32,000 nt of DNA from Candidatus Saccharimonadota bacterium (GTDB lineage Bacteria > Patescibacteriota > Gracilibacteria > Absconditabacterales > Absconditicoccaceae), in the NCBI GenBank assembly GCA_030429145.1, contig JAUIDC010000001.1:270001-302000 (forward strand), read 5' to 3'. Of this stretch, positions 1 to 32,000 are shown in pieces. A model generated the notes under the pieces. It was given only the letters and a program-made list of their open reading frames with translations. It was not told where the DNA came from and made no database searches. Both the position numbers and the translations under genes were made by a program. Positions within the stretch are counted from its first letter, which is position 1. The number at the start of each line of letters is the position of its first letter.

Positions 1-1124
1 GCATACTTTTTTGTCACTAACCCCTCTGTATGAAGGTCGACGGCTATTTTAAACGCAGCTTTGCCATTTCTCTTCCCGTTGCGGGTTTGAAGCATATAGA
101 GCCTACCGTCTTCTATAGTAAACTCTATGTCCTGGATGTCCTTTCGGTTCTTTTCCAGGAGTTTTACTATTCGTAGTAGCTCATCGTAGACTTCTGGCAT
201 CTGTTCTTTGAGAACGCTAATCGGTTCGGGAGTACGAATACCTGCCACCACATCTTCTCCTTGTGCATTTAAGAGGAACTCACCATAGAGCTCATTTACA
301 CCGGTTGATGGGTTTCTGGTAAACAATACACCTGTACCACTTTTATCGTTCAAGTTGCCAAACACCATGGCCATAACGACAACGGCTGTACCTAACAGAT
401 CGTCCAGCTTTTCTATCTTTCGATAGTCGACAGCTTTTTGACCATACCAGGATTTAAACACAGCCTCTATAGCCGGGAACAACTGTTCCCACACATCTTG
501 CGGAAACGCATAACCTGCATGCTGTTCAAACACCTCTTCATAAATAGAACAAAGGGTTTCCATATCCTGTGCGCTCATAGCACGGTCATCCGTGATATTA
601 TGTTCTTTTTTATACTGAGCAAATGCATGTTCAAAATGTTCATGATCAATACCCAATACTGTTTCACCCCACATATCGATCAGGCGACGATAACTGTCCC
701 AGGCCATACGTGCGTTAAACATTTTTATAAGACCAGGTATGGTAGCCCTGCTGGTACCGATATTCAATATCGTTTTCAGCATACCAGGCATACTCACTGC
801 AGCACCTGAGCGAGAACTTAAAAGCAGTGGACTTTCCGTATCGCCGAATTTTCTATCGACTTGATCACCTATTTGTCCTACGTAGTCCATGATGAGCTCT
901 TTCTGCTCATCTGTCAGATGTTGGCGTTTCAGATACGGCCCGCATTCTGTAGTAGGGATTACAATGCCTGGTGGCACAGGTATCCCAGCAATACTAGCCA
1001 TTTCAATAAGGCCAAAACCTTTGCCACCGAGTATATCGGGGCCAAGGCCTGCACCATTAGTCGTGGCGCCTAAACCAAAATGATAATTTATCATTGTGTC
1101 ATTACGAGAAACTGTTGTCTGCAT
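1..1124 (-). CDS. ppdK: pyruvate, phosphate dikinase, N-terminal ~374 codons (C-terminal part lies beyond window start)
   Basis: Own reverse-strand translation from ATG 1124..1122: MQTTVSRNDTMINYHFGLG..ILGGKGFGLIEMASIAGIPVPPG..LLLSSRSGAAVSMPGMLKTILNIG..GTGVLFTRNPSTG..GEDVVAGIRTP..IEFTIEDGRLYMLQTRNGKR. These are PPDK N-terminal ATP-grasp motifs. Absent from the track, presumably because no stop lies inside the window. No in-frame TGA. Alternative start ATG 1094..1092. Confidence 0.9.
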   Translation of the reverse strand, partial: MQTTVSRNDTMINYHFGLGATTNGAGLGPDILGGKGFGLIEMASIAGIPVPPGIVIPTTECGPYLKRQHLTDEQKELIMDYVGQIGDQVDRKFGDTESPLLLSSRSGAAVSMPGMLKTILNIGTSRATIPGLIKMFNARMAWDSYRRLIDMWGETVLGIDHEHFEHAFAQYKKEHNITDDRAMSAQDMETLCSIYEEVFEQHAGYAFPQDVWEQLFPAIEAVFKSWYGQKAVDYRKIEKLDDLLGTAVVVMAMVFGNLNDKSGTGVLFTRNPSTGVNELYGEFLLNAQGEDVVAGIRTPEPISVLKEQMPEVYDELLRIVKLLEKNRKDIQDIEFTIEDGRLYMLQTRNGKRNGKAAFKIAVDLHTEGLVTKKY

Positions 1125-1158
1125 CTTTGTTAGTCGTTTTTTTGTTAATTAATGGGTT

Positions 1159-1698
1159 TTACGATTCCTGTAATGTTTTTACCAAATCCAACGCCTCTAC
1201 GATCTCCAGGAACTGATTCGCAGGGTTGTTTGTAGGCTCTTCTATTTCTGTGAGAAGTTGTACATTGTTTGCGTTGAAAAAGTTGAAGCGAAAGACCAAA
1301 AAGGCAGCTCCTTCTTTTGTTCGTTTCAGGAACACTTTTAGGTAAGAAGTTTGAGTGCCAATGAGTGCTTTCTCTTCTTTACGATGAATATGACCGGAAA
1401 GCTCTGATGTCATAGGCTTGGATGTCGCCACCAGTGTTTCCTTATTGGAAAACTCTGCAGGCAAAGGTATGATCAATAAAGACATCCTTGCTGTTTGTTT
1501 CTCCGTCTTTGCTTTTCCTGTCACCTCGGGATCAATGGCGTCCTGAAACAGGCGGCGTGTTGAATGTTTGCGTTTCTGCTCTGCTTGAGACATAATTGCA
1601 TAGTAAAACACTAACCACCCTCTCTTTTCGTATAATTGAGGGGTAATGATTCCATTTTCAATCAACCATTGTGTTGTAATGTGCGAGTTTGTGGACAT
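1159..1698 (-). CDS. hypothetical protein (179 aa)
   Basis: Track ORF with ATG start and TAA stop, no TGA. Tight spacing to ppdK on the same strand. No motif I recognise. Confidence 0.55.
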   Translation of the reverse strand: MSTNSHITTQWLIENGIITPQLYEKRGWLVFYYAIMSQAEQKRKHSTRRLFQDAIDPEVTGKAKTEKQTARMSLLIIPLPAEFSNKETLVATSKPMTSELSGHIHRKEEKALIGTQTSYLKVFLKRTKEGAAFLVFRFNFFNANNVQLLTEIEEPTNNPANQFLEIVEALDLVKTLQES

Positions 1699-1981
1699 TC
1701 GATTTTGTTTTAATGTTGTTTTTTAATAGTTTTAATGTAATTTTTTGAAGAATAGAAGGCCTCCCTCATGTGGGAGCCTCTTTGTTTTTTAGTTTCATAA
1801 ATCGTTTTTTGGCAAATGTTAATGAACAATAATCTTCCCATTTTTTTGGAAAGACTTCGTTTATACAAAATGTCAAACTCACAACAAGGAAATATTTCAC
1901 AAAATGCATGGCAAATCGGTGGGATTTTATTATAATAGATAAATTACCTGTGTATTTTTTAAAAAAGATATAAATATCCAC

Positions 1982-3250
1982 ATGTTGATCCCTAGACCAA
2001 GATATGTATCTCAGCTCAGAAGCGCCATAGACAATCCTTCTATCAAGTGTATTGTGCTCGATGGCCCAAGACAAGCCGGAAAGACGACGCTCCTTAAACA
2101 CATCTACGATGACGACTCTGTGGAGATGAAAAAATATTATTATAGCTTTGATGATCAACTCAGCACAAAGCAGTTTAAAGACAGCCAAGAGTTTATCTCT
2201 TTTATGCAGATAAAATTTGGGATCGATTTTTCGAAACAGAATATCTTGTTTCTCAATGAGATTCAATACAGCAAAAATATCGGAACGATCATCCACGATC
2301 TCATCAATGAACATCAAATCAATACGAAAATTGTGGCCACATGAATCACGCAAGGAGAGTACAAGGATTTTCTGAAGTTGGATGCTGCAGACTTTACGGT
2401 CATCACTATCCATACGCTTAGTCTTGTTGAGTTTCTCGAATACAAGTGAATACATACAAAACATCTTGATCCGCTCAAACTCAGTAGTATCCTTTTCTCC
2501 GAGATAGAACCGCTCCTCAAAGAGTTTATCACGCGATGAGCATATCCGAGTGTCGTGGTTGCAAAAACTGCTGATGAAAAGAAAGAAGCACTCAAGCATC
2601 TCATGCAGTCGATCATCATGAAAGATGTGAGCTTCTGGTTCCGTAGAGAGGAGATCGCTTATTTCGAACAGATTTTAGCAATTATCAATGACCAACACTC
2701 ACGCATCCACAACAAGCGAGCGATCAAAAACACCTATGAGTTCCCTGCCAAACTGATAGACAAATATACACAATTTCTTGAAGATCACTTTCTCATCACA
2801 ACACTTTCGCATTTCTACACCGACAAAACAAGAGAGGTTTCACACAAAAAAAATTCTTATCTTCTCGACATGGGCATCAAAAATTATCTCAACAATACAT
2901 TCTCACCGCTCCTCCACGATCCTTTTATCATGCGTGATATCGCACTACAAGAGATCTACAAAAGCATTCCTGCAGATCACCACATAGCAGCCTATCAGAA
3001 AATCAATGGATCGAAAATTGATTATGTCGTCTGTAGCGATAAGCATATCATCCCTGTAGTAGTAGGAGATAAAAATACAGAAAGCATACCCAAGGTTTTT
3101 GCAGGATTTTCTGAACACTATGGAGAAAAAATTGAAACACTCATAAAGACTACCGCCTCTTTTAGTAGCATGAACTATCTAGGCGAAAAACCAGTATATG
3201 TGATCCCCTACTTTCTCATAGGAAAATATCTCGCTGAAAATGCAAAATAA
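1982..3250 (+). CDS. AAA+ ATPase, COG1373 / AAA_14 + DUF4143 family (422 aa)
   Basis: Track ORFs 1982..2344 and 2555..3250 share a frame and join through TGA at 2342, 2447 and 2537 with no TAA/TAG between. Walker A is LDGPRQAGKTTLL. TGA positions give KIVAT[G]ITQ, LEYK[G]IH and ITR[G]AYPSVV, matching the TGS and GGYP motifs I recall for this family. The overlapping 277-aa minus ORF is antisense noise. Confidence 0.85.
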
Positions 3251-3344
3251 TCATCCTACACACACAATTTTTCTATATCACAAAGAAAAAACTTGTAAAG
3301 TTTCTGCAGATGGCTATGATTAGCCTCCAAACAAAAAACACATT

Positions 3345-3916
3345 ATGAACAAAGTATTCCAATGGGTGAGAAACATAGTCAGCTCTCTGCGTACACCTAC
3401 GACAAGTATACGGTATCACAAAGTCACTAGTGATATATATGCGAGGGTAGATAGACTATACAACTCCTGGGAGGCTTTGTGTATCTATCACCGTCAAGAT
3501 GAAGTACGAATTCTCTACAATCAGCTTGCTGACTATGGAGATGTGTTACTGCATACCGTATCTGACAACAATGAGGGACTAGAAGAAGAGTGTTGCTACT
3601 ATTTTATCAATGAACTGATGCAGGTCTTTCATGACCCCTTCATCTGCTACAACGATGATTTTTCAGACTTTCATAATCTGACAACAATGAGGGACTAGAA
3701 GAAGAGTGTTGCTACTATTTTATCAATGAACTGATGCAGGTCTTTCATGACCCCTTCATCTGCTACAACGATGATTTTTCAGACTTTCATATGATATGTA
3801 TAGAAGCACTACACGCTTTTGATCCCGCTATCATGTTGCCAGAAATAGAGTATCAACGCTATGGCAAAAGAGTCTCATCAAAAAGTATTTTTCACAAAAA
3901 CATCACCGCTCATTAG
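3345..3916 (+). pseudogene. hypothetical protein gene split by a 116-bp tandem duplication (frameshift)
   Basis: Track ORFs 3345..3698 and 3734..3916 both contain MQVFHDPFICYNDDFSDFH, with the Met codons at 3618 and 3734, 116 nt apart. Deleting one copy restores a single 151-aa ORF. As printed, the first ORF ends at TAG within the second copy. Confidence 0.6.
3560..3791. repeat. perfect tandem direct duplication, 2 x 116 bp
   Basis: 3560..3675 and 3676..3791 are identical by eye (atctgacaacaatgagggactagaagaagagtgttgctactattttatcaatgaactgatgcaggtctttcatgaccccttcatctgctacaacgatgatttttcagactttcata). The period of 116 is not a multiple of 3. Confidence 0.9.
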
Positions 3917-4013
3917 GCAGTGATGTTTTAAATTATGTGAAAGCATTTGATTTCTGCACTGAAACGGATATAGATGAGGAGTAAGTAAAAAATTATTCCT
4001 TTTCTTTGTTTGT

Positions 4014-5024
4014 ATGCAGCTGAGAAATATCGAGATCATCGCACCGAGAGGAACGCGAAGAGAAATTGATGGGTTGATAAAGACCTATGAGATTTCTCAT
4101 GTTTGGAAAACTGACATCGATAGCAAAACAAAGAGTATAAGATTTGTGCTCGAAGCGGAACATGCCGATGAGATACTCGATACGCTTGATAAACGTTATA
4201 GTAGTAAAGAAAATTTTAAGGTGATAATCACCTCTATCCTTGCAACCATCCCGAGAGTTGAGGAAGAAGAAAAACCTGAAGAAAAAAAAGAGGAAGTGAA
4301 AAAGCCAACAATTCTTGGTAATCCGAAATTGGTTTCTATCTATCGCGAAGAGCTCCATGCTCGCGTGCTCTGACAGGCTGAACTTTCACCGAACAAGATG
4401 ATCTTGTTTGCGCTTTCAGCTATCGTTGCTGCGATCGGTTTCATTTATAATAATATTCCTATCCTCATTGGATCAATGATGATCGCTCCATTTATCGGTC
4501 CGAACTTAGGTCTTGCGTTTGGTGCGACTATTGCAGACAGCGATCTGATCAAAAAAGGATTGAAAACTCTTGGTGTCGGATTCTTATTGGTCGTTGCCAT
4601 GGGTGCAATCTGGGGAATCGGATTTTTCGATGGCATCCACACGATAGAGCCACTCTTCTTATCGTATGACCTTATTTTCTTGTCGTTCATCTCTGGAGGC
4701 GCAGCTATTATTTCACTCCTTGAAAACAACGACGTCTCTCTTGTTGGTGTAGCAGTTGCAGTTTCTATCTTGCCTCCTCTGACACTCTGCGGAATGCTTC
4801 TCGGTCATGGAGACTATGCGAATGCATTGCAAGCGCTTCTCGTATTTGTTGCAAATATTATTTGTCTGAACTTAGCCGGCATCATGACATTTCATATGGC
4901 TGGCATTCGTCCAGCAAAGCGATGGGAGGCAAAAAAAGCTGAGATACAAGCGAGAAAAGCGACAGTATTTTGGACTGTCATGCTCTTTCTTTTGATGGCT
5001 ATCACGTTCTTTCTCACACAATAA
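4014..5024 (+). CDS. DUF389 / TIGR00341-family membrane protein (336 aa)
   Basis: Track ORFs 4014..4373 and 4398..5024 share a frame and join through TGA at 4371 (..REELHARVL[G]QAELSPNKMILFALSAIVAAIGF..). Soluble N-domain followed by multi-TM domain with MMIAPFIGPNLGLAFG, the typical DUF389 layout. TAA stop. Confidence 0.8.
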
Positions 5025-5137: not shown

Positions 5138-5965
5138 ATGAAACTACAATGGATACTTGCACTGCTCTTCACGCTCAGCGTGTTGGCCTGCAATAAAAAA
5201 GAATCAAACGATCTATTGCCTAACGGCGATCAGACAGCAACGGCGAATGATAATACATCACAGGCAAAAGTCGGACTTAGCGGCAATACTATAGAGTACC
5301 GCATTGCTACAGCTTATGAGAAAAACTACGTACACTGGTGTCAGCTTTGGGACTCACCATTGAGTAGTTATGAACGAGCTAACGCATGCGGTCCGACCTC
5401 CTATATGATCGCTGCGCATATGATTGCCGCCGCCCATGGCTATGGATTCATGCCGGTTTCCGGCACAAAGCTCAAAGCTATCGTCACTAAGATGGGCGGT
5501 GTCCCTATCTCTATGACACAAATCTCAAGTCACGTCACCAACTACGACTCGCCTCCGCTCAGCACTCTCTCTTATACAACGACCAACAGGAATGCATTCA
5601 AATCTTTTCTGGAGGCTCAGCTCGCCGAAGGCGAGCCACTAATCGTCCCTATTCGCATCTCAGGAAGCCTGAGAACCAACGACAGTCGTTATACGGATGA
5701 AAATTCGTTAACTAACTACGACTTGGATATCGTTGACAAAACTACTCGACCGAACTACATCAACACTTCGGGAGTGGGTCATTTTGTTGTTGTCATAGGG
5801 ATCAAAAAATCTCTCTATACGTGCAACGACTATATTTACTATAAAGACCCTCTTGCACAGTCAGGTGCGACCAAAGTTTGTAGCTACGAGAGATTTCTCT
5901 CCTCTGCTGCCGCCAATGGCGCCTCTAATCTCTACTACGACGCCCTCGTCATCAAAAAACAATAA
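5138..5965 (+). CDS. putative lipoprotein with C39-like (papain-fold) cysteine peptidase domain (275 aa)
   Basis: Signal peptide plus lipobox-like MKLQWILALLFTLSVLAC. Candidate catalytic Cys in ANACGPTSYMIAAHMI and His in GVGHFVVVIGI, as in Peptidase_C39_2-type domains. No TGA, TAA stop. Confidence 0.6.
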   Translation: MKLQWILALLFTLSVLACNKKESNDLLPNGDQTATANDNTSQAKVGLSGNTIEYRIATAYEKNYVHWCQLWDSPLSSYERANACGPTSYMIAAHMIAAAHGYGFMPVSGTKLKAIVTKMGGVPISMTQISSHVTNYDSPPLSTLSYTTTNRNAFKSFLEAQLAEGEPLIVPIRISGSLRTNDSRYTDENSLTNYDLDIVDKTTRPNYINTSGVGHFVVVIGIKKSLYTCNDYIYYKDPLAQSGATKVCSYERFLSSAAANGASNLYYDALVIKKQ

Positions 5966-5985: not shown

Positions 5986-6017
5986 TCCCTGCAGTTTTTC
6001 TGCGGGGATTTTATTTT
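5986..6017 (+). terminator. Rho-independent terminator after the lipoprotein gene
   Basis: tccctgcag-ttttt-ctgcgggga forms a 9-bp stem with one G.U pair, followed by ttttatttt. Its T-run overlaps the TAA of the convergent DUF2779 gene. Confidence 0.5.
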
Positions 6018-7555
6018 GCTATCTCCTCTAACACCTTCTGATAAATACATACCATCGCCCGCGTATCTTGTTTACAGTACTCTAACAAGTTCTGGATATG
6101 TTTATTGCAAATGTCTGTTTCAAATTTTCACTGGACGATGCCGGCGAGCAGCTCTGCTGCGATAGCGCCGTGAGGCACGGCCATGCCGTCGTAGGAGATA
6201 TCTGTGAGCACTGGTAGCACTTTCTTGATAGACGATGAACCGTTGAAGTGACGATGAAAATATAATTGTTCACTGAAGATTTCCATGAGGTCGAAAGTGT
6301 TTTCATTTATCTTTGCAAAGACCTCTGCGTATTGTGGATATCTTTGTGCCATCTCATCATTTCTGGTATTTTCAAATCATTTGAACCACACTACATAGGT
6401 TCCAGCTCCCTCATCAAGATCATCTATGAGCTGTTTCACGATCGTTTCATTGGTATCAGCACCTGCACCGATGATGGCTTCTTTATGTGAGATCGTTCCA
6501 TCCTCGTCCATACGATGTACAGAATATTGGACGACCACCTGTTGCCATGGGCTTGTTCACTGCATGAGTGGCACAGGTCGACTAATGGTCTCATAGTCAT
6601 AGAAGTACATAGGAAAATGAATGTTATCAAACTTTTGTTTGATCCCGTCTGCATCTATGACCTTCTCTCATTGCTGCCAGAGTGAAACATAGTTACTCGA
6701 TTTGTTTTCTTCTCATTTCGCATTACGAAGCATTGCCCTTTCATCCTCCGTAAAATGGTCGATCAAAATTTTTCCTATCTCATAAAACTCTTTCGTCTTG
6801 TTTCTAATCTGTGGAATATTCCAGATGGTTCCCTTCTCCGGCTCTGTACCAAAATAGGTCAAGTGATCACTGCCGTCATACGGATAAACCTTGCAGAACT
6901 CCTCTCTCTCCAATGGAATATTTTCTGTCATAGAACCGATAATATTGAGCACAGCCTCATCACTTTTTAGTTCGTTCGTCACCTCTTCGCGCTGTAACAG
7001 TGCCTCAGGATCTATGTCTCATTCTCTCACATACTCTTTATTGAGATGTACCATAAATGCTCTACCCGAATATTTATCTTTCAATGCTTTCTTCAAAACA
7101 AAATGCTGAAAACTAACATCTGCCTCCATATCATCGAGCAGATTGTTTGCCTTCGTCTTTTTTCTCACACCATTTTTTGCTTTCACCTCTCGGAGGTCAT
7201 ACTTCCCTTCACTATTTCTGACGAGCAAGTCACACTTACAAAACAGATTATCATGGACAATTCCTGCCTGATAGACCACGTCAGGATTGGTCTTAAACGC
7301 GTCCAATGTATTGAGATGATATCACTGATATCGATCGGGATGCTTACGTTGCATAGACTCTACATTGACGATATTTTGTCACTGGAAAAGAGCTAATGCC
7401 CGCTCCTCCACAGCATTACCAATAGCCAACCCATCCATATCTCCATACATCTTGTCCAAAATTTTTGCATACACACCATTTTTATCGTGCACATGCCATC
7501 GAGCAAGATGTGGATTTGTTGTATATTCTACGAAAAGTGATTTTGTTAAGCGCAT
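6011..7555 (-). CDS. DUF2779 domain protein (PD-(D/E)XK-like N-domain; 514 aa)
   Basis: Track ORFs 7019..7306, 6713..6982 and 6128..6352, plus untracked pieces, form one frame from ATG 7555..7553 to TAA 6013..6011. Eight in-frame TGA (tca on + strand) at 7379, 7322, 7019, 6713, 6668, 6557, 6377 and 6128. DUF2779-like motifs: HFPMYFYDYETISRPVPLMQ[G]TSPWQQVVVQYSVH, GSSSIKKVLPVL, LLEYCKQDTRAMV. Confidence 0.85.
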
Positions 7556-7686: not shown

Positions 7687-8379
7687 ATGAAAGACTCAGA
7701 ACAAAATATACAACTTTTCACTATCTATCCTATCCTTCAGCAAAAACAGATAGGGTTAATGGAAGATTATAGATTCCTCGTTACTCATCTCGACACACCG
7801 AGAACCACACTCTTCTCTCTTATGCAACCCCATGAGGCGTTACTTTTGTATGCTAACAGTTTGAATAAAGTAATTGGAAGACAACTCATAGGTGGAGAAA
7901 CTGAACCGTTTTTCAGTGATATCCCCCTCGGTAGTTACAATGTCATGCCTCTCGGATTGATCATAGAAGAGAGACCAGATGGACCTTTACAAAAGACACA
8001 CAACTATGCTATACAGCAAAACAAAGAACAGGAATATTTCAAGATTGTAAGCATCATTGCTAAATGTGCACTCAAACTACAATACAAACAACTAAAAAAA
8101 GCAATATTCAGCAATGCAGAACTACAATTTGATACTGACGACGAACCTGTATGGTATATCAACCCACACATGTACGAGATAGACAATCTACGTTTCCTCA
8201 ATCATAAATTTGTGTGTGAGCTGAGAAAAGATGAAAAAATAACCGCCTTTTTCAGAGAGATAAGAAATATATTTCTTACCGATGAGTTCACAACACGGTA
8301 TTTCTTTGAAGAGGTTTTGAAAGTGGGAGAGTTTCTATCCCATGTGACTAGTTTACAAATAGTATATCAGGACAATTAA
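7687..8379 (+). CDS. hypothetical protein (230 aa)
   Basis: Track ORF with ATG start and TAA stop, followed by a strong hairpin terminator. No TGA and no recognisable motif. Confidence 0.6.
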   Translation: MKDSEQNIQLFTIYPILQQKQIGLMEDYRFLVTHLDTPRTTLFSLMQPHEALLLYANSLNKVIGRQLIGGETEPFFSDIPLGSYNVMPLGLIIEERPDGPLQKTHNYAIQQNKEQEYFKIVSIIAKCALKLQYKQLKKAIFSNAELQFDTDDEPVWYINPHMYEIDNLRFLNHKFVCELRKDEKITAFFREIRNIFLTDEFTTRYFFEEVLKVGEFLSHVTSLQIVYQDN

Positions 8380-8384
8380 CCTAT

Positions 8385-8416
8385 AAAAAAGCCGGCGAAT
8401 CGCCGGTTTCTTTTTT
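8385..8416. terminator. bidirectional Rho-independent terminator between convergent genes
   Basis: aaaaaag-CCGGCG-aat-CGCCGG-tttctttttt: GC-only 6-bp stem flanked by an A-run and a T-run. Lies between the stops at 8379 (+) and 8415 (-). Confidence 0.65.
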
Positions 8417-21213: not shown

Positions 21214-21242
21214 GTGTCCTACAATTACATAAATATAAATTC

Positions 21243-21434
21243 CTATCTTGCTCATTCAGAGTATGGGAGAAGAGCCCCTGAAACACCTGCTCCTGTCACA
21301 CTTATACTATCAGAACTTACAATGTTTTCCTTTTCACTTCACGTACTATACCCATTTTCACCATATTTGTCAATAGCATATAACAAAAGGGCAATTCCCA
21401 CCAATAATGCTATCACTACAAGTAACTTTTTCAT
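21243..21434 (-). CDS. possible small membrane protein (63 aa), visible only under code 25
   Basis: Own translation from ATG 21434..21432 to TAG 21245..21243: MKKLLVVIALLVGIALLLYAIDKYGENGYST[G]SEKENIVSSDSISVTGAGVSGALLPYSE[G]AR. It has an N-terminal TM helix and two in-frame TGA. It lies between the orphan gene stop (21459) and the giant gene start (21213). Support is position and hydrophobic N-terminus only. Confidence 0.4.
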
Positions 21435-21458: not shown

Positions 21459-24400
21459 TTATCTTCCACCTTCACCATTTCCATTGTCACCACCATCTCC
21501 AGTACCATTGGTACCACCGTCGATGACTACATCTCCTTCTTCTCCTCCAGTTTCAATAATTGTACCACCGTCTCCTTCTGGTTCCTCAGGTGGCTCAACT
21601 GGTGGCTGCGTTGGAGGCGTCGGCGCCTTTGGCTTTCTACCAACAAGCGCTCCAGCTCACACATTGATACTATTTGCCGTCTGGTAGTTTTCTGTGTATT
21701 CCATACCAACATAGATATCACCAGGCGTCTTTTCTACTGTCGTTGTCGTTTCAGAGTATTTCATACTAAGCTGACCAAAGCTGATCATGAATCCCTCGTT
21801 TGCACATGGCGCAAAGAGCATCTTCACAAACTCACTTGGAAGAGTCAATGTTACACCATCCGCCGTCTCCAATGTTTGATTTTTTACGAGATCCATAAGC
21901 TGATCTGTATTGAGTGGTTGTACATCAGCTTTTTTGTCTTTCATGAACTTATTTACCTTGTCGAGAAGAAGTGAGAACTCTCTCGTTGTCTTAAATGACT
22001 CCTGTAGCTTCGCTTTTGCATCCAGTTCAGTAGCAGCTTCTCTGTATTCCTGTCCCTTGATGATCTCAAGATCCCCAGAAATAAATCCTGTCGTAGGAGT
22101 AAGTCCTCTTCTATAGTACGACACGAGAGCAATAGCCTGTGGAACAGTCTCCGTCTCGTATTTTTCAGTCTTGCCATCGATTTTCTTTGCTTTTTCATAG
22201 AGACTCGCAAATGAATTTTCTGTAATAGCGATACCGCTATTTTTAAATGCATCCACGTGTCCTTGTCTCTTAGCAAGCATCTGACCAATGCTATTCACTC
22301 CTCCAATAGTTTTTCCTTCTGCAATCGCATTTACTTTTGCTGAAGTAGATCCTGTCTCTAAGAGCACATTAGTGATATATCTCTTGTTTTGCTCCTTTGC
22401 CCATAGTGTGTCAAAGTGAGCATCAAAAATCTTAAGGTACGTATTGAGTGTGTCTATCGTCTGTTTCAATCTTGCGTCATCAGTTCCTCTTGTTGCTTCT
22501 GCAAACTCTCCAAAAGCCTTGTTATATTTCTCCTTAGTCGCAACAGGCGTCTTGTTTGGATCAGTCATATTTATAAATATCTGCCTATTGTCTCTGATCA
22601 TTGAGTCAATCAGCGCGACGTCCTGTGCATCAAGCCCAATATCGACACTCATAAATTCTTGCTGAGACTTAAGAATATTCATAGGTCTCTCCACAAGATA
22701 TGGCACCTTACTTGGATCACCATTGAGAGGAGAGTTTATAGCTCTTTTCCCCTTGGTCATATCTTTTTCACTGTCATATCCTATATATATCTTCTGTTTT
22801 TCACCTTGCGCACCAATCAGCGTTCCCATAAGTATATTTGATCACTTAGAAATAGTGATAGCGTTGTCTGTGACCTTCACGAGCGACTTATCATTCACGA
22901 ACACATCAAACTGGTCATAGATAGGATTGGCTGCTCTTCCTTTCTGTCTGATCGTAATCAGCCCATCGATTTCAGCAACCTCTGCCTTGTCACCAAGCCA
23001 GTATGCAATCTTCTCTGCATATGACATATTTGCGACATCTGCATTATCAAATTTTTCAAATCCTGCAAATGATGAAAGACGCTGTTCTTTCGCCTGTTTA
23101 TCAAATTTATCTGTACGAATAGTTGCTTTCTTATAGATCTTCATACCAACAAATGCATTAATCACTGGGATGGTTGCGAGCGTACCAACTCCTGCATTCA
23201 CAGAAAAGTCTACTTTACCTCTCGACTCTCTCAGTGCTTCATTTTTCCATGCACTTGCAAAGGTCGAAGCAATATCCTCCCATGTAAATCATTGCTTCAT
23301 ACCATCAAGTATATGGCGAGCCATAGCAAGAAGCGATGCATCATCAGCTCTTGAGAATAACTGTTTTAATTGTGTAGCCACCTGCTCTGCAGTTGCTCCT
23401 GGTTTAATATTTTTTAGCTGTGCTTGTAGCTGTTTACTGATATTTTCTGACTGAGCATCAATACCAGCCGTCAAGTCATTTCCAAGCTCGATACCAACCC
23501 CTGCATATCCTACTGTTGCCTCAGCATATGCTCCAGTATTCCAAAGTCTCTTTGCCTCAAGGTTTTTCTTGAGTGCTCCCATGTTGAGAGACTGACTAAT
23601 ACCAACGCGCGCAAACGGAATAAGCACATTTGCTGCACCTGCATTTCCTGTAAGCGTTGTCGTATTTGAAAGCTGAAGATCCTTACCAAAGTTTACGGCA
23701 AAACCTGGCGCTCATTTATCAGATACTCATACACCTACGGTCATACGATCAATGAGTGGAGAGATATTGTTAATAGTCATCCCTGTACCAATACCAGCAC
23801 CTCTCATATCCACGTTATTGTTTGGATCCTGTACGTCCATCATCCCTGCTGCGATCGTCCATGTGATCTGCGAGCGAAGAGCTCTTTGTGCATCTTGTGT
23901 CTGCTGAGGATCTAGGCCAAGTGCTGCTATCGCATCAGCTGTTTTTTGATCTATCGCACTTGCATACTTCGCTTCGATCTGCTTCTGTCTATCTGCAACA
24001 TCAATAGCTGCATTCTTTGTCGTGAGAAAATCTCTCAGACTAACAACCGTCATATATGGCAATGCTTGCATGATAAGATTTCTAATATGTTGTGCCTGTC
24101 CTGGGTTCGAAAGAGCCTCATTGAGTCCTTGCATATTTTGCCAATTAAGCAATCCTGCGCTACCAGAAAGCGTTGCTAGCTTGTCATGAAGCGCTTTTGC
24201 AAAGGCATCCTGCCCCATCATTTTCGCAGTAGTCTGAAACATGGCAAGAAGCTCCTTTTCCGTAAAGATCGTCTCTTTTTCATTGTACTCGGTCTTATTC
24301 TGCGCTCTCTTATCAAGTCTATCCTGTTTCTTTTCCAGTCTGTTTATCTTCTTCGCATCATCCCAAAGATTATCTCTTTGCAAAGCTCACTTCATCTGTC

Positions 24401-24944
24401 TAGCCCAATTGAGCGCTTGTTTCTTCTCCTCTTTCGTCGGGTATTTACCAAACATCGTTTCTGCATAATAAGCAGCGAGGCCTCTCGTGAAATTTATACC
24501 CTGAAGTGCTCATTTATCGAGAAATCATAGAAGAAGATTTTTGTTCTGCGTACCGATATCTGGAATACGACTGATAGCATTCATCAAATCTTTTTGCTCT
24601 TGATCAGCAACATCTTGCTTATTACGAAGTTTCTCATAACGTTTATCGTTTTTCACTTCTGTCCCAACAAATCTATCGTTATTGAGATCGGCGATATATG
24701 CGGAAAGTTCTTGCTGAGTCTCTACAACAACGACCTTTTGCGCCTGCTTCTTTTGTTGCTCAACCTCGTTAATCTCGTTGTTCAGCGTCTCCTTTTGATC
24801 TGCCGGCAAGCGCACATCATCAAGCTGCTTATCAAGGTTCTTTCCTTGTGCTAGAATCTTATCAATCTGCTTCGAAGTATCCTCCATAGGGTTCTTCAAG
24901 AGATCTTGATTGTTCTGTGCCAAAGGCGAATTAAGTCCTCACAT
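21459..24944 (-). CDS. large orphan protein (1161 aa) with coiled-coil N-region and Gly/Asp/Glu/Pro-rich C-terminal tail
   Basis: Track ORFs 24525..24923, 23727..24383, 23289..23627, 22842..23201 and 21657..22829 all share one frame. I translated every gap and found only TGA, at 24939, 24525, 24510, 24387, 23727, 23712, 23289, 22842 and 21657. ATG 24944..24942 is preceded by an in-frame TAA. After the last TGA the frame runs 66 more codons (..RKPKAPTPPTQPPVEPPEEPEGDGG..GDGGDNGNGEGGR) to TAA 21461..21459. No N-terminal signal peptide and no domain I recognise. Confidence 0.75.
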
Positions 24945-25109: not shown

Positions 25110-26546
25110 TTATTTCCCTCACAAGACTACTCTTACTGTCGAAATTAACACCTGTAGATCCATAGCAAGCGACCAATGCTGGATATAATAGAGCTCCAAC
25201 TGCGCCTCTTGTTCAAATGGCAAGTTGTCGCGTCAAAACACCTGTGCATATCCCGTCAAACCCGGCTTTGCAGCTAGGAGTCTTTTCATCCACGGCTCAT
25301 ACTTTTCAACCTCTGCGGGAAGATGTGGCCTTGGTCACACCATCGACATAGTGCCTAAAAACACATTGACCAATTGCGGAAGTTCATCGATAGATGTTTT
25401 ACGAAGTATTCTTCCTACGCGAGTCACGCGTGGGTCATCGGCAATCTTCGGTAAAATATCATCTCTTGAGTTTTTTGTCTGAATAAGCTTCTCGTACATC
25501 TTCTGCGCCTTTTTTCCCCCATAATTTTCACCAGTACTCATATGTGTATACATGCTGCGAAACTTCAGAAATCGGAACAGCTGTCCCTTTCTACCTACTC
25601 TCTTTTGCAGGTAAAAGACTGGTCACTTGGAGTCAATCTTGATAAGCATTGCTGTCAGAAGGAAGATTGGTGAAAGTACGATCAATGCGAGGAGAGAACA
25701 AACCAGATCGCATAGTCTCTTAAAGACCTTCATCCAACCATCTAAAGGCGAGCTACGATATGCTCGTCACACCACTGGCCCAACACGCTCAGGCATAGCA
25801 ATCAGATCCTCCAAGAAATAACTCTCTGGGATATGGTAAAATATCTTCCCATGACTACGTGCATGATCAGCAATCATCTGCAAAGTATTGGTACCATATG
25901 AACCAACCGCCATCGCAATATCTATCCCCTCTCGGCTACGTGTCGAGTCATACTCTTCATACGCTACTGGGATGATCTCATAGATAGGATAGCCTATCAC
26001 ATCTTCCGAGAACTTTGTATAGTGCTTCTGTGTTTTATAGATAACCAATATCCTATAAGGCTGTCTTCTTTCTAGTCGGCCATTGAGATTGTTCCAAAAA
26101 ATATCAAAAATACTCAACACAACCAAACCACATCCGGCTGACCAAAGGATCAAAAATCTTGATATACCATCACCAAAGAGAAATCCATTTCCAAAAAGAG
26201 CCAAAAAGGTCATCGTTACTAACCGCCAGACCCATGCAAGCAAGAACTTCTTATAGTAACCATGCAATGGCCTAAAGAGCTCATAGACCCCAAGAAAAAA
26301 AGCTGCTATAAGAAAAATAATGATAGCTGCTAGTGAAAACCACATAGTTTCTTGCGTGTTGAATGCTGGGATTCTCAGCTGCAACCATGGTATCAGATCA
26401 GTATACTGACGCACCGTATAACCGATATAAAATACTGCTACGAGCAGTATAAAATGAAATAAAGGCCTCGCAAGGCGAAGCAACGTCTTATAGATTGAGG
26501 CAGTACCCTTCTCCATGAAGATAGTAATGGTTAAATATACTTTCAT
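25110..26546 (-). CDS. polyprenyl-phosphate glycosyl-1-phosphate transferase (bacterial sugar transferase, WbaP-like; 478 aa)
   Basis: Track ORFs 25767..26546 and 25335..25553 share a frame and join through TGA at 25767, 25623, 25335, 25233 and 25119, ending at TAA 25112..25110. N-terminal multi-TM region, then [26 protein letters not shown][G][42 protein letters not shown][G][14 protein letters not shown][G][17 protein letters not shown]. Confidence 0.9.
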
Positions 26547-26972: not shown

Positions 26973-28055
26973 ATGAAGAAGTTTGGTATGGGTTTATTTT
27001 ATATAGTTGCTTTTTGCGGTATAAGCTACTTTCTTTGGGAGTATCTGAACGCTCCGAGAGAGTTTATCGTGAGCCTCATCATCAGCGTACTCATTATAGG
27101 CGTGCTCGCTTGGAAGAAAAGCCCCTATATGTTTGGCGTGTGAGTGATACTAGTTGTTGTGCACATCGTGCGACTTGTCGGTCATTTCATCCCAGTATAC
27201 AACGAAGAGCCTGACATTCGCCAACGATATCGCACCCATGACAGCATGCTTCGCTCAGTTGGCTGAGCAGCGGGAGATACACAGGTGACGTTAGTCAGTG
27301 CAAACACACAGACCGTGACTGACGCTGCTCAGCTCCGCTCCTCTCCGCTCCCTATCTATCAGTGAAACCAGATCATAACAGTGGGACCTGCTATAAGCTC
27401 AGAAGGGCGCGTCATGCTCACCTTCCGAGACGGTAGCAATGCGCAGCTCTTTCCTCAATCATCGCTACGCATAGACACTCTCGCACCAGACTATGCTACA
27501 CTGAGCTGATCGCGTCTAGGCCTGATTCTCGAAAGAGGGATCGTCGCGGTAGCAACGCCAAGGCGTTCGTTTACTCCTCAACAGTGGTTTGTAAAAGCAG
27601 GAGGGCTTTACCTCTCATGCAGAGAGTGTATTGTTGCTCTTTCGGGAAGTGCTGGTTCATTCTCGAGTGAAGAACCGTTTACTCGGCGAGTTGCATGAGG
27701 CGAGTTTATCACACTTTCTGGTGGAAGTTATCTTTTTACCAACAATGCGATACGCGCAAGCAACAACACTGCTCTCTCTGCCTTTTTCAATGATACGACA
27801 AATACAACGAGAAACCGAAAAAGCACATATGAGAGCGAACGTCAACAATATATCCGTGACAGACGGTGATGGTCGATGGATGCCAGCATACTGCTAACGA
27901 GTGTTAGTAAGATCAAAATGGCTCTTGTCTGACTTATCGACCGAACATATTTAGAAAAATATGACTATCTTGCGCTCTATGAGTACTTACTCGATGGTGG
28001 TGAAGTCCCTCCTCCATTTAGAGACCAGCAACATATCTTAGAGTATACACAATAA
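26973..28055 (+). CDS. membrane protein with FecR-like domain (360 aa), almost invisible in the standard-code track
   Basis: Only the first 65 aa appear in the track (26946..27143). Codon-by-codon translation continues in the same frame through TGA at 27141, 27264, 27363, 27507, 27696, 27867 and 27930 to TAA 28053..28055. About three N-terminal TM helices, then IYQ[G]NQIITVGPAISSEGRVMLTFRDGSNAQLFPQSSLRID, which is FecR-like. All 8 TAA/TAG triplets in 27230..27630 fall in the other two frames. Likely start ATG 26973 (MKKFGMGLFY). Confidence 0.7.
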
Positions 28056-28086: not shown

Positions 28087-28104
28087 ATACTTGCCTATTG
28101 ATTT

Positions 28105-28650
28105 TTAACGAAATGAGAACGACTCAAATGCCATGTCGATAGAGTCACGATTGCCACTGAAATTGCCAGCAGGAGCAAGATAGGTCATAACGTACACAGT
28201 ACCATTTCTCATCGTGTAGACCTGCTCCCATGAGAATATCTGGTCAAGATATTTTCCGCTAAATGAGACTCTTCTTGCCGGCGTTCCATCTACATTGAGC
28301 GATGTTGGCTGCACATAGGAAAACTCTCTGATCACCTCGCTTAACTGCGAAAGTGTTTGATTGACATAGACATCCAACCCCATATCTACTGGTATGTTTT
28401 CTCTCGTCACGTTGAATACTGGTGTATACTCTCCAATATCAGGTGAGGCTACTGTTGCAACCAAGTAAGGATTGGTAGCTCCTGTCACAATAGTTCGCTC
28501 ATTGGGATATGCAAATGAAATTGTATTTTCTGCATCCACGAAAACATTCTTATAAAAGAGTTTGTTTCCATAACGAAGCCATAGGATCAATGCTACGACA
28601 ATCAGTGCCGCAAGAGAAATCAGAAGCCATGAAAGCCATTTTTTCTTCAT
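28105..28650 (-). CDS. membrane-anchored hypothetical protein (181 aa)
   Basis: Track ORF. N-terminal anchor MKKKWLSWLLISLAALIVVALILWL followed by a beta-rich ectodomain. It may have a PsbP/DcrB-like fold, but that is a guess. TAA stop, no TGA. Confidence 0.6.
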   Translation of the reverse strand: MKKKWLSWLLISLAALIVVALILWLRYGNKLFYKNVFVDAENTISFAYPNERTIVTGATNPYLVATVASPDIGEYTPVFNVTRENIPVDMGLDVYVNQTLSQLSEVIREFSYVQPTSLNVDGTPARRVSFSGKYLDQIFSWEQVYTMRNGTVYVMTYLAPAGNFSGNRDSIDMAFESFSFR

Positions 28651-28755
28651 GTTTTGTTTCCCACAGAAAGGTAAATTACCTCACATATAATCAAACTTAT
28701 ACCAATAGCAAGGAAATTACTCATTATTTTCCTCTCTTTCCCGATATATGATATG

Positions 28756-29436
28756 TTATATGCGCAGGCCAATACTTCGTAAGTGTAAGAGCTTATCTGC
28801 GCGCCCTTTATAGAGGCCGTCCCCTATCAAAGAGCTACCTATAGATGCTGCATGGACACGAATTTGATGACGTATTCACTTGTTTATCACAGCGTAAGCT
28901 GTCGTCATATTAGTGTTTGCATCATAGTACAATGGTATGAAATAGGTTTTTACTTCATGTATCCTTCCACGACATTTACGTTTATCGTCAGGATGACGTA
29001 CCGCCACCATCTTCTGCTCATCATGAGCATGATGCATGATAGGACATGAGACACACAAAGCTTTTTCTCCTGTCAGTGGCTCCTGTGTTCGCATCGCATG
29101 TGTATCTGTATTCACATACTGTGTCAGATCACCAAGCATATCGCACAGGTAGATCTTAGCCGTGCGTCATGCGCCTTGCTCCTGCGTATACCAATCTGCG
29201 ATCCGCTTATTCTTCGCAAAATACAGCAATCATGCAGTATCATTGTCCAATCTATTCAGTAGTCCTCGCTCGTCTTGCCACGTCCATTGCTCTCTGAGTT
29301 GCTGCATGAAAAGAGGGTTTTTCTGATCTATTTTTTCCAAAAAAGAAAACTGGGTGCCAAAAGTAGTTGGCATCCCATGAGGCTTCCATACGTAGTAAAA
29401 CCTGCTGTCTTCATATCGTGAAATAGTATCCATCAT
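28756..29436 (-). CDS. RluA-family pseudouridine synthase (226 aa, no S4 domain)
   Basis: Track ORFs 29230..29436 and 28876..29139 share a frame and join through TGA at 29230, 29167 and 28876, ending at TAA 28758..28756. Motifs: YVWKPHGMPT, catalytic-Asp motif GLLNRLDNDTA[G]LLYFAK, and K[G]IRHQIRVHAASIG..LIGDGLY. Confidence 0.85.
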
Positions 29437-30008
29437 TATTTATTCGCGTCTTCGCGTAATGCTTTCAAAATATCCTCAAATACCTCTTCCACTGTTTGTG
29501 TCCCGTCTATCTTTACTAGTGTACCAAAGTGTTCGATATATTCAATGATTGGCATGGTCTGCGAATAATAGGTATTGATACGATTTTCCACACTCTCTTT
29601 CGTATCATCGGGGCGTCCTCTCTTCATAGCACGCTCAATAGCAACATCTTTAGGCACATCTATCCAAATACCAATAATTTCACGTTTATTTCTATACATC
29701 CTATCCAAAAACGAGTGCATCTGCGGAATATCACGAGGAAATCCATCAACGATCATCTTCTGACTCTCTCCGAGCGTCACGTAAAATGCATCAAAAAGCG
29801 CTACTACAAGAGCGTCATGAAGCAATTTTCCTTGATCCATAAGCACCTTAATGTACGAGCCAATTGCATTGTCATTGGACTCTAAGGCACGAAGGACTGC
29901 TCCTGATTCGAAATAACGATACTGGTTAATAAAATGATCAACCAGTTTCTTTGCTTGCGTTCCTTTTCCCGACCCTTGCGCTCCAAACAGAACGATATCT
30001 TTCAGCAT
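29436..30008 (-). CDS. adk: adenylate kinase (190 aa, short lid)
   Basis: Track ORF. P-loop FGAQGSGKGTQAKKL, VDGFPRD, RPDD. Its TAA stop overlaps the downstream ATG by 1 nt. No TGA. Confidence 0.95.
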   Translation of the reverse strand: MLKDIVLFGAQGSGKGTQAKKLVDHFINQYRYFESGAVLRALESNDNAIGSYIKVLMDQGKLLHDALVVALFDAFYVTLGESQKMIVDGFPRDIPQMHSFLDRMYRNKREIIGIWIDVPKDVAIERAMKRGRPDDTKESVENRINTYYSQTMPIIEYIEHFGTLVKIDGTQTVEEVFEDILKALREDANK

Positions 30009-30162: not shown

Positions 30163-30429
30163 ATGCAAGGTACTGTAAAATTCTTCAACGTTACAAAAGG
30201 TTTCGGATTCATCACTGACGAATCAAACCAGGATCACTTCATCCACATTTCTAACATCCCTTCAGGAGAAGCTCTTGAAGAAGGACAGGTTGTATCTTTC
30301 GAGATCCGCGAAGGTAGAAACGGTAAGATGGAAGCTTACGACGTAACTACTGGTTCTGCTGGTGTAGAAGGAAACGTTGAAATCAACGACGGTTCAGACG
30401 ATGATATGTCTGATGACGACGCTGAGTAA
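30163..30429 (+). CDS. cold-shock domain protein with acidic C-terminal extension (88 aa)
   Basis: Track ORF. RNP1/RNP2-like KGFGFI and DHFIHIS, followed by a tail of about 20 aa, GSDDDMSDDDAE. TAA stop. Confidence 0.9.
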   Translation: MQGTVKFFNVTKGFGFITDESNQDHFIHISNIPSGEALEEGQVVSFEIREGRNGKMEAYDVTTGSAGVEGNVEINDGSDDDMSDDDAE

Positions 30430-30484
30430 TCACGCTCTTAAAAAACTGATTATATACTTCTAGTAAATAAATGCGGTTTTGAAT

Positions 30485-30510
30485 CTCTGTCCTCGGACAG
30501 AGGTTTTTTT
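30485..30510 (+). terminator. Rho-independent terminator after csp
   Basis: CTCTGTCC-tc-GGACAGAG followed by gttttttt. Confidence 0.65.
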
Positions 30511-30514
30511 GTAC

Positions 30515-30547
30515 AAAAAATGCCACAGAACAGATAATTCTGTGGCA
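30515..30547 (-). terminator. Rho-independent terminator (minus strand) after CDS 30569..31042
   Basis: The + strand reads aaaaaa-TGCCACAGAA-cagataa-TTCTGTGGCA. On the minus strand this is a 10-bp hairpin followed by a T-run. Confidence 0.65.
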
Positions 30548-30568
30548 TTATGTATCAAGTATTTTGCC

Positions 30569-31042
30569 TTAGTCATGGCTCATTGCAGCTACAAATTCAC
30601 CACTTAATCCTTCATTGGACATATACCAGCTACCCTCTACTATGAGTGTATCATTATTTATATGACCGGTATATACGATTATAAGGTCATGAGGTGGATT
30701 CTTCCCTTTATATTTCTTGAAGAATATAAGAGGAGGAAGAGGATCTTGTTTATCATCTGGCAAGTATCCTCTCCAAACGATATCAAATTCTCCCAAATCA
30801 TCGCTACCATAACCCGTCTTAACAGAGTTGGCGAATTTATTATGCTCAGCCTCCGTCAAAAAGGCTAAAACTGTTGGGCTTCCAGTGAGAAGATGTCTTA
30901 TTTTCTCCAGATCATCAACTTCTTTTAACCACTTGACCGGATAGTGTTCATACCCTGGGGTCAGTGTCATCTCAAAGCTAATAATTTTACCCTCTTCTGT
31001 GAAAGTGCCTTTTATGAATGTTTTTTGTATTGCGGTTTCCAT
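30569..31042 (-). CDS. hypothetical protein (157 aa)
   Basis: Track ORF 30569..31189 trimmed to the internal ATG 31042 (METAIQKTFIKG..). The upstream 49 codons overlap the rpsI terminator hairpin. TAA stop. No known motif. Confidence 0.55.
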   Translation of the reverse strand: METAIQKTFIKGTFTEEGKIISFEMTLTPGYEHYPVKWLKEVDDLEKIRHLLTGSPTVLAFLTEAEHNKFANSVKTGYGSDDLGEFDIVWRGYLPDDKQDPLPPLIFFKKYKGKNPPHDLIIVYTGHINNDTLIVEGSWYMSNEGLSGEFVAAMSHD

Positions 31043-31093
31043 GTCATTATATTTTGTGAAACACAATAATATATTTTTTACAGAAAGAGTCAA

Positions 31094-31123
31094 TAAAAAA
31101 ACCCTGCCGGTGCATCGGGAGGG
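31094..31123 (-). terminator. Rho-independent terminator (minus strand) after rpsI
   Basis: The + strand reads aaaaaaaa-CCCTGCCG-gtgcat-CGGGAGGG. On the minus strand this is an 8-bp stem with one mismatch, followed by a T-run. Confidence 0.55.
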
Positions 31124-31192
31124 ATTTGCGTTTCTCTCTGAAAATAGAATTGCTTGTTTGATATGAATTTCATGCACGAATGCAAGCATATA

Positions 31193-31621
31193 TTAACGCT
31201 TTGATCGCTTTGGTTTCTTTCTCGCTTTCTTGAGACCTGGTTTCATACGCTCTTTAGATCTTGGATCTCTCTTGAGGAGACCGTATGGCTTAAGTTGTCC
31301 TCTGAGCTCAGGATCCCATTCGATAAGTGCTCTCGCAAATGCAAGTTTGATAGCATCTGCATGTCCTGCGATACCACCTGACGTCAATTTGATTTCAGCG
31401 TCAAACTTATTCACGTTATCCTTTCCAGTTACCACAATTGGAAACATAGCAAGATCATGAAGGTACTCATTACCTCCAAAGTACTCTTTCATGCTTATAC
31501 CATTCTCTCCTTTCTGGATAGTATAGTTACCTTTACCATTTGGGAAAAGTTTCACTACAGCCGTAGCTACCTTTCTTCTTCCCACAGCATATTTATAGTT
31601 TGCTTTCTTTGCAGCTGTCAT
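31193..31621 (-). CDS. rpsI: 30S ribosomal protein S9 (142 aa)
   Basis: Track ORF. GGIAGHADAIKLAFARAL, LLKRDPRSKERMKPGLKKARKKPKRSKR. No TGA. Confidence 0.95.
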   Translation of the reverse strand: MTAAKKANYKYAVGRRKVATAVVKLFPNGKGNYTIQKGENGISMKEYFGGNEYLHDLAMFPIVVTGKDNVNKFDAEIKLTSGGIAGHADAIKLAFARALIEWDPELRGQLKPYGLLKRDPRSKERMKPGLKKARKKPKRSKR

Positions 31622-31623
31622 GA

Positions 31624-32000
31624 TTAGTCGATACGTGTAGGATGTAAATTATCGTATTTTGCTGTCTCAGTCGTGAAGAGCTTCAATCTCTTCATGCGTC
31701 TGTCTCTGAGCTTATTCTTAGGAAGCATTCCTCTTACAGCAAACCACAATGGGTCTGTAGGCTTCTTCTGGAGCAATGTGTGGAGTGTCTTTGACTTCAC
31801 ATTACCCTTGTAACCGCTGTACGTATAGTAGAGCTTCTGTAGCAATTTCTTGCCCGTAACCTTTACCTGGTCAGCATTCTCAACTACCACAAACCCACCG
31901 GCATCCCGGAAGTCAGAATAGCTAGGATTGTTCTTTCCCATAAGCAAGTCTGCACAGATCACGGCAAGTCTTCCAAGAGTCTTCCCCTTAGCGTCTATCT
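31624..32000 (-). CDS. rplM: 50S ribosomal protein L13 (N-terminus beyond window end)
   Basis: Track ORF 31624..31962 extends in frame to the window edge (..DAKGKTLGRLAVICADLLMGKNNP..). GYKGNVKS, AVRGMLPKNKL. Conserved rplM-rpsI order. Confidence 0.95.
   Translation of the reverse strand, partial: IDAKGKTLGRLAVICADLLMGKNNPSYSDFRDAGGFVVVENADQVKVTGKKLLQKLYYTYSGYKGNVKSKTLHTLLQKKPTDPLWFAVRGMLPKNKLRDRRMKRLKLFTTETAKYDNLHPTRID

Follow-up and report, generated by a model that had tools for sequence, protein, structure and literature searches.

Three codon reassignments, UGA to glycine and CGA and CGG to tryptophan, in a 32-kb Absconditabacterales locus, and the apparent exception of its PPDK gene

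In which genetic code are the genes of an uncultivated bacterium written, when TGA, CGA and CGG all fall at unexpected positions of its proteins? The question is raised by a stretch of 32,000 nucleotides of contig JAUIDC010000001.1 (positions 270,001 to 302,000; assembly GCA_030429145.1), called the window here; coordinates below are window positions with the strand as + or −, unless a neighboring locus is named. An initial annotation, made from the letters of the window, proposed translation table 25, in which TGA is glycine (Gly). We suggest, with a probability of about 0.88, that the three-change Absconditabacteria code is in use instead: UGA is Gly, CGA and CGG are both tryptophan (Trp), and UAA and UAG are the sole stops. 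These codon meanings are read from conserved positions in the proteins and from the codons that relatives carry at matching sites. The gene of PPDK looks as if it were written in the standard code, and the three-change reading has to be weighed against it.

The DNA of the window (GC content 0.41) was judged cellular and encodes MutS, NrdA/NrdB, PPDK, adenylate kinase and the ribosomal proteins S9 and L13. The relatives used for comparison are named by locus (L001, L002 and so on), and L026, L027 and L045 are the flanks of the window itself (15.8 kb in total). Under standard stops the window has 6 open reading frames (ORFs) of at least 300 amino acids (aa), and with TAA and TAG as the sole stops it has 18, while turning TAA or TAG into a sense codon instead gives only 7. 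With table 11, a greedy set of non-overlapping ORFs takes up 75.3% of the window; once TGA is read through, this share is 91.6%. The comparison of coding density and ORF length called for in the initial annotation shows a gain for TGA and no such gain for the two control codons. The 24 gene models contain 56 in-frame TGAs spread over 12 genes, or 54 in 11 if the start-proximal TGAs at 24939 and 28681 precede the true starts; the earlier estimate of about 54 in 13 genes was essentially right. Each of the 23 genes that end inside the window does so with TAA (20) or TAG (3), as had been stated, although for 25 ends. The initial annotation is also right that close to half of the gene models called under table 11 are in error.

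The TGAs do not interrupt the domains in which they lie. In MutS (868 aa, 9463..12069, −; TGA at 11872, 11671, 11626, 11221, 10324, 10303, 9832, 9613, 9604 and 9601) the Pfam domains I–V are uninterrupted over them, and the protein aligns end to end with E. coli MutS. Similarly continuous are Ribonuc_red_lgC in NrdA (861 aa, 14382..16967, +; TGA at 16542 and 16740), Bac_transf (positions 1-178 of 179) in a sugar phosphotransferase (478 aa, 25110..26546, −; TGA at 25767, 25623, 25335, 25233 and 25119), DUF2779 (1-126 of 126) in a 514-aa protein (6011..7555, −; TGA at 7379, 7322, 7019, 6713, 6668, 6557, 6377 and 6128), AAA_14 and DUF4143 in an ATPase (422 aa, 1982..3250, +; TGA at 2342, 2447 and 2537), and PseudoU_synth_2 (3-152 of 152) in an RluA-family pseudouridine synthase (226 aa, 28756..29436, −; TGA at 29230, 29167 and 28876). 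The DUF389 domain of a membrane protein (387 aa, 3861..5024, +; TGA at 3921, 3948, 3960, 3975 and 4371) is also full length (1-137 of 137), but all five TGAs of this gene lie upstream of the matched stretch. Under the standard code these TGAs would be true stops, marking pseudogenes or sequencing errors, or else selenocysteine codons, for which the presence of in-frame TGA speaks and nothing further. Intact domains in genes with so many TGAs, at sites where relatives have GGN, do not fit pseudogenes. Sequencing errors do not agree with two Logan contigs of run ERR3428547, which were assembled independently and match the window at 100% identity throughout their overlap (~14.4 kb). Against selenocysteine stands the pairing of UGA with Gly and not with Cys, and a scan of the whole window with Rfam gave no match. 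We therefore treat the probability of the standard code as negligible.

The amino acid itself was determined against a standard-code reference of 14 E. coli K-12 proteins, with counts restricted to well-aligned sites. There TGA stands opposite Gly in 10 of 13 cases and opposite Trp in none (p = 2e-9), and the Gly rate is similar to that of the GGA and GGT codons (~70%). A codon alignment of MutS from 25 GTDB loci (Absconditabacterales, SR1 HOT-345, one locus labelled Gracilibacteria and two standard-code Clostridiales) has GGN 74 times, TGA 41 times and TGG not once in the ten columns that hold TGA in the window. Over all genes shared with close relatives, 39 TGA sites of the window organism could be paired with a relative, giving GGN at 26, TGA only at 10, other codons at 3 and TGG at none. 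Table 4, in which UGA is Trp as in Mycoplasmatales, has in its favor that UGA is clearly sense and that many public translations of relatives give W there. However, none of 290 TGA sites from 8 genomes lies opposite TGG, the partners being GGN, and the W residues of the databases fit a table-4 translation of TGA, since such columns contain G and W only. In this way the DUF2779 homologues show mostly G/W mixes in the TGA columns, and among 120 Bac_transf homologues the TGA columns 308, 404 and 438 hold G or W only, save two gaps each in 404 and 438; mixes of this kind in conserved columns are consistent with some pipelines having used table 25 for TGA and others table 4. Table 4 is thus extremely improbable.

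The motifs that had been cited for TGA as Gly were all found in the window, and most of them stand. IPMA[TGA]VPYH and IKA[TGA]RHPVIE of MutS and AWKQ[TGA]LKSTYY of NrdA have their TGA opposite a Gly of E. coli; in NrdA such an alignment is seen for the TGA at aa721. In the sugar transferase, DSK[TGA]PVFY meets Gly in WcaJ and MSMV[TGA]PRP meets Gly in both WcaJ and WbaP, while AQVF[TGA]RD meets Gly in WbaP but Glu in WcaJ. The column of PLMQ[TGA]TSPWQQ in DUF2779 has G in 50 homologues and W in 29. RLD..TSG and G.xHQIR are motifs of the RluA family; RLDNDTA[TGA]LL and K[TGA]IRHQIR lie within the continuous Pfam domain, and by this domain and the family motifs their TGA is probably Gly. The search of this protein against the PDB gave zero matches, and the E. 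coli RluA alignment spans 20 residues only. Together these results establish well that UGA is Gly, as the initial annotation held, and exclude UGA as Trp, pseudogenes and selenocysteine.

TGA usage is very uneven among the genes. A giant surface protein (1394 aa, 17071..21255, −; CLIPPER/DUF11-type Pfam matches, 16 TGG, 1 CGA) encodes none of its 140 Gly residues by TGA (P = 5e-8, given a local TGA rate of 11%). TGA is likewise avoided by PK, enolase and the majority of ribosomal proteins. A hypothetical protein of 262 aa (12174..12962, −) has TGA (12177) as its last sense codon, followed by TAA, so that its 3' end (12174-12179, −) codes either for a terminal Gly or preserves a remnant of an old TGA stop.

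Is this the only change in the code? The conserved Trp columns of the homologue alignments are mixes of W and R, and for this reason CGA and CGG were put to the test. The window contains 40 CGA, 12 CGG and 95 TGG codons, so that, if all of them are read as Trp, CGA and CGG make up about one third of its Trp codons. In L001 and L002, whose MutS is 79% and 75% identical to that of the window, the codons opposite the window CGA are TGG (6), CGA (2), CGG (1) and GGC (1), and those opposite CGG are TGG (3) and CAG (1). Conversely, TGG of the window pairs with CGG six times, each time in L001, and with CGA once. Opposite AGA, CGT and CGC of the window stand codons for Arg or Lys, among them no CGA or CGG; the lone pair of an Arg codon with CGG is one of AGG. 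The syntenic locus L046 has TGG opposite nine CGA and three CGG codons. Against E. coli, CGA falls on Trp at 5 of 9 sites and on Arg at none, and the other Arg codons fall on Arg at 81 of 128 and on Trp at none.

Single genes show the same exchange. NrdB (R2c-like, 326 aa, 13335..14315, +) has no TGA and no TGG, and the CGA at 13434-13436, its sole Trp codon in the three-change code, coincides with the Trp conserved in the FW.PEE motif (W48 in E. coli, with its counterpart in human R2); at this site (aa34) L002 has TGG and L001 has CGA. Five TGG codons of NrdA lie opposite CGG or CGA in L001. The CGG (aa557; 10399) and the CGA (10351) of MutS have TGG opposite in both L001 and L002, and the CGA at aa246 of the AAA_14 protein (CGA at 2534 and 2717) lies opposite TGG in L046. 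Among the four CGA and two CGG of the DUF2779 gene, four sites lie opposite TGG in L002, the CGG at aa499 pairs with TGG, and the homologue columns at CGA/CGG are mixes of R, W, F and Y. The sugar phosphotransferase has four CGA and one CGG (26223), and the column of this CGG (aa108) holds W in 72 and R in 44 of 120 homologues. In both of these homologue sets the CGA/CGG columns and the TGG columns are alike mixed for R and W, and true Arg columns hold R or K and W almost never. The CGA (31205) of ribosomal protein S9 (142 aa, 31193..31621, −) is opposite the aromatic residue of the C-terminal QFSKR motif.

The richest case lies 3 kb to the left of the window, in the gene of LeuRS, on a Logan contig that is 100% identical to the window over their overlap. 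It contains 14 CGA/CGG codons, many of them at invariant Trp. CGA stands at five Trp positions common with E. coli, a sixth CGA is one residue off an E. coli Trp in the alignment, and the motifs at CGA/Trp include YDW, YYKW, VNWCP, QWFIK and DWP; the CGG codons at aa103 and aa1434 lie opposite TGG.

For a summary over genes, a CGA/CGG site was classed by the codon found at that site in any relative, in six lineages, namely the window organism together with L035, L046, L048, L049 and L050, all in TGA-rich contexts. With PPDK set aside, 65 distinct sites are Trp-type, 1 is Arg-type and 58 are unclassified. Plain table 25, where UGA to Gly is the sole change and CGA and CGG stay Arg, is what most annotation pipelines assume for the group (bioRxiv 10.64898/2026.05.24.727570), and it agrees with a PPDK CGA that sits on an invariant Arg and exchanges with CGT, CGC and AGA in relatives. 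It is at odds with the 65 sites against 1 and with the E. coli counts for CGA, and it would leave NrdB without Trp at the conserved W48 and LeuRS with Arg at the five Trp positions. We consider it very unlikely; the initial annotation does not stand on this point, and with CGA and CGG acting as Trp codons outside PPDK, table 25 would mistranslate most of the 52 CGA/CGG codons of the window as Arg. TGG is still Trp, as had been noted, but accounts for no more than roughly two in three Trp codons.

Two features of these proteins may be added. In NrdB a Phe replaces the radical tyrosine of class Ia R2 (IHSDFF versus IHSxxY), and the best match among solved structures is the Chlamydia R2c protein, so that NrdB appears to be a class Ic (R2c-type) subunit. 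In LeuRS (1521 aa; L045, 7906-12471) hydrolase (Ser_hydrolase/Hydrolase_4) and NUDIX domains are inserted within the synthetase, and the LeuRS of L046 seems shorter (934 codons).

What weighs against the three-change code is, first, that CGG is supported by fewer sites than CGA and, above all, the gene of PPDK. The window contains its N-terminal 374 aa (3..1124, −; off the left edge), and the full gene of 903 aa lies in L045 (2466-5177). Among its five CGA codons three fall on an Arg that is invariant in 100-104 of 104 standard-code PPDKs: aa235 (420-422, −), Arg in 104 of 104 and conserved in PDB alignments; aa635 (in L045), the arginine of RLLDPPLHEF, again 104 of 104; and aa889 (in L045), 100 of 104. 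The other two are at aa318 (171, −), which is variable (E/D/A) in standard-code PPDKs and has Arg codons in some relatives of the clade, and at aa327 (144, −), Tyr or Phe in standard-code PPDKs, with Arg codons in clade relatives. At the five codons the relatives mostly have CGT, CGC or AGA. Over the six lineages, the CGA/CGG sites of PPDK are Arg-type in 17 cases, Trp-type in none and unclassified in 5 (versus the other genes, Fisher p = 9e-17), and CGA or CGG occupies 10 invariant-Arg positions.

The rest of the gene is of the same kind. TGA is used at none of its 75 Gly codons (p = 1e-4), while it makes up 40-70% of the Gly codons in the genes adjoining PPDK in L048 and L050. All Trp columns of PPDK are TGG; in 16 members of the clade TGG occurs in no Arg column and TGA in none of the 60 invariant Gly columns. 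The share of CGA and CGG among Arg-box codons is 8.3% where Arg is invariant and 8.9% in the other columns, so that they appear to behave like neutral synonyms of CGT, with no selection against them. Judged by its codons, PPDK is written as though in standard code in at least six Absconditabacterales lineages, and by protein evidence in 16. No report of such an exception to the Absconditabacteria code was found in the literature searched.

Could this be a foreign gene? PPDK lies in the conserved order AAA14–PPDK–(iPGM/enolase)–PK in five of the six lineages, L035 having a RecG-like gene after PPDK instead. The window protein is 66-75% identical to the clade members and at most 50% to the best match outside the clade. 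With this synteny, a distinct clade and sampled carriers that are all recoded, a recent horizontal gain from a standard-code donor is rejected as the sole cause, and a phage-borne copy is unsupported, as PPDK was found in none of the viral contigs. However, the tree of PPDK conflicts with those of the flanking PK and AAA14: the window PPDK is nearest to L048 and L035 (72-73% identical, against 65-66% for L046 and L049), whereas for PK and AAA14 of the window L046 and L049 come closest. Since the trees disagree, some lateral exchange within the Absconditabacterales is likely, and a lateral replacement of PPDK is suggested. The idea that Trp is tolerated at the Arg positions of PPDK is rejected too, because TGG, the only Trp codon of this gene, is absent from those columns in the 16 clade members. 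A small ORF upstream of PPDK in L046 (9152-9799) and L049 (9313-9942) looks standard-code-like, with no TGA, four shared Trp that are all TGG and one CGA opposite CGC. A conserved two-gene cassette with PPDK is unsupported here, the ORF at 1159..1698 (−) being non-homologous to that upstream ORF; it codes for a hypothetical protein of 179 aa without TGA and with CGA at 1321, gave no Pfam match, and is found as the exact protein on Logan contig ERR3428547_33923.

Alternatively, CGA and CGG may not be cleanly reassigned, being read ambiguously as both Trp and Arg, or in a way that depends on the message or on the state of the cell (Arg in PPDK, Trp elsewhere). Ambiguous translation was called untested by Shulgina & Eddy (PMC8629427), and the contrast of 17 to 0 in PPDK with 1 to 65 in the other genes, the even shares of CGA/CGG at invariant and other columns and the lack of TGG in the Arg columns all point in this direction. 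On the other side, uniform ambiguity fails both sets of sites and cannot, on these codon patterns, fit both PPDK and LeuRS; no nucleotide context within −9 to +12 nt separates the Trp-type from the Arg-type sites; and the lateral exchange indicated by the trees may contribute to the pattern. We know of no mechanism for message-specific decoding of a sense codon in bacteria. On balance, unclean reassignment is a distinctly unlikely description of the code, and we retain the three-change code for the genes outside PPDK. For PPDK itself two proposals are possible though unlikely, and about equally so: that it is a chromosomal gene kept in standard code inside recoded genomes, and that its pattern reflects ambiguous or message- or state-dependent decoding. 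Selection acting on highly expressed genes could be the reason why TGA, and CGA/CGG in the role of Trp codons, are avoided; it leaves the Arg-type CGA/CGG sites unexplained.

We suggest that the three-change code would be read as follows, by the literature on this group. A tRNA-Gly(UCA) would decode UGA, Trp-accepting tRNAs with UCG and CCG anticodons would decode CGA and CGG, a tRNA-Arg(GCG) would serve CGU and CGC only, and release factor 2 would be lost. The window, its 15.8 kb of flanks (L026, L027, L045) and the relatives' loci around PPDK yielded no tRNA gene. A search of 30 related loci gave tRNA-Met, tRNA-Ser and tRNA-Arg(GCG) in L010 (SR1 HOT-345, near MutS) and tRNA-Ser in L016; a UCA, UCG or CCG anticodon does not occur among the tRNAs of the window, its flanks and these loci.

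The lineage follows from locus labels and homologue names. After L001 and L002 the next-closest MutS loci are labelled Absconditabacterales or SR1 (SR1 HOT-345), and the named homologues of the DUF2779 and Bac_transf proteins belong to Candidatus Absconditabacteria or Absconditabacterales. By these names the host is an uncultivated Absconditabacterales bacterium of the SR1 group, in the Candidate Phyla Radiation (CPR)/Patescibacteria, in agreement with the placement given in the initial annotation.

The remaining genes complete the window. Rightward from the AAA_14 gene there are a hypothetical protein of 117 aa (3345..3698, +; CGG at 3411, CGA at 3507; no Pfam match) and, beyond the DUF389 gene, a secreted hypothetical protein of 275 aa (5138..5965, +), which has no TGA, CGA at 5375 and 5747 and a 58% identical orthologue in L002 and L046. 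Between the DUF2779 gene and mutS lie hypothetical proteins of 230 aa (7687..8379, +; CGG at 8296; no Pfam match) and 340 aa (8415..9437, −; TGA at 9225 and 8910, three CGA, two CGG). A hypothetical protein of 1161 aa (21459..24944, −; nine TGA, no Pfam match) follows the surface protein, and a hypothetical membrane protein of 360 aa (26973..28055, +) carries seven TGA, six CGA and two CGG. In the DcrB/PsbP-like secreted protein (28105..28686, −; Pfam DcrB) the TGA at 28681 is probably upstream of the true start. The RluA-family gene, which has four CGA and one CGG besides its TGAs, is adjacent to adenylate kinase (190 aa, 29436..30008, −; Pfam ADK, aligned to E. coli), which has no reassigned codons. 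The right end is formed by a cold-shock-domain protein (88 aa, 30163..30429, +; Pfam CSD), a hypothetical protein (30569..31189, −; CGA at 31115) of uncertain start, called as 157 aa by a public pipeline, S9, and the C-terminal 124 aa of ribosomal protein L13 (31624..31998, −; CGG at 31906), which runs off the right edge and is complete in L026.

The consequences concern the public record of the whole group. Gene callers with table 11 split half of the genes of the window, and callers with table 25 or table 4 still translate roughly one Trp position in three as Arg. In two homologue sets of relatives' public proteins (P0001-P0120 and P0241-P0360) conserved Trp columns hold R in 22-65% and conserved Gly columns hold W in 11-44%, the former because CGA/CGG are read as Arg and the latter because TGA is read under table 4. 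Such mistranslation harms homology searches, structure prediction and the inference of catalytic residues group-wide; NrdB, for example, appears without its radical-transfer Trp. If the PPDK pattern is true and lateral transfer is not its cause, then CGA/CGG are decoded ambiguously, or decoded depending on message or state, or PPDK is translated by a standard-code system. PPDK thus offers a testable handle on whether the reassignment of CGA/CGG is clean or ambiguous in vivo, a question left by Shulgina & Eddy.

How does this code compare with the known ones? The Mycoplasma/Spiroplasma code (table 4) shares UGA as sense and yields the same gene calls as table 25, but the amino acid here is Gly and not Trp. 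The Candidate Division SR1 and Gracilibacteria code (table 25) shares UGA as Gly, UAA and UAG as the sole stops and a small-genome CPR host; however, it keeps CGA and CGG as Arg, and here they lie at Trp positions in every analysable gene but PPDK. Bearing on PPDK only, the CUG codon of yeasts is, to our knowledge, the only well-known case of one sense codon with two meanings in a cell. In some yeasts it is decoded ambiguously as Ser and Leu (PMC8629427); this ambiguity hits every message, whereas the two meanings here appear, from sequence alone, to be split by gene. In the literature the reading of UGA as Gly dates back to 2013 (Campbell 2013 and Rinke 2013, cited in PMC8629427), and the Absconditabacteria code with UGA=Gly, CGA=Trp and CGG=Trp was described by Shulgina & Eddy in 2021 (PMC8629427) and restated in PMC13092985 and bioRxiv 10.64898/2026.04.02.715157. 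With the latter code the window shares all three reassignments, its nearest relatives being Absconditabacterales, and the tRNA-Arg(GCG) of the relative SR1 HOT-345 (L010) fits the description of CPR in PMC8629427. It differs in composition: the GC content of 0.41 exceeds the 0.26-0.38 given for the reassigned clades, and over all genes CGA and CGG occur 41 and 12 times per 10,000 codons, against <37 and <7 in aligned Pfam domains of all but one species (PMC8629427), which makes this a rough comparison. The code itself is thus not new; the organism is a new, relatively GC-rich member of the group that uses it, with heavy use of CGA.

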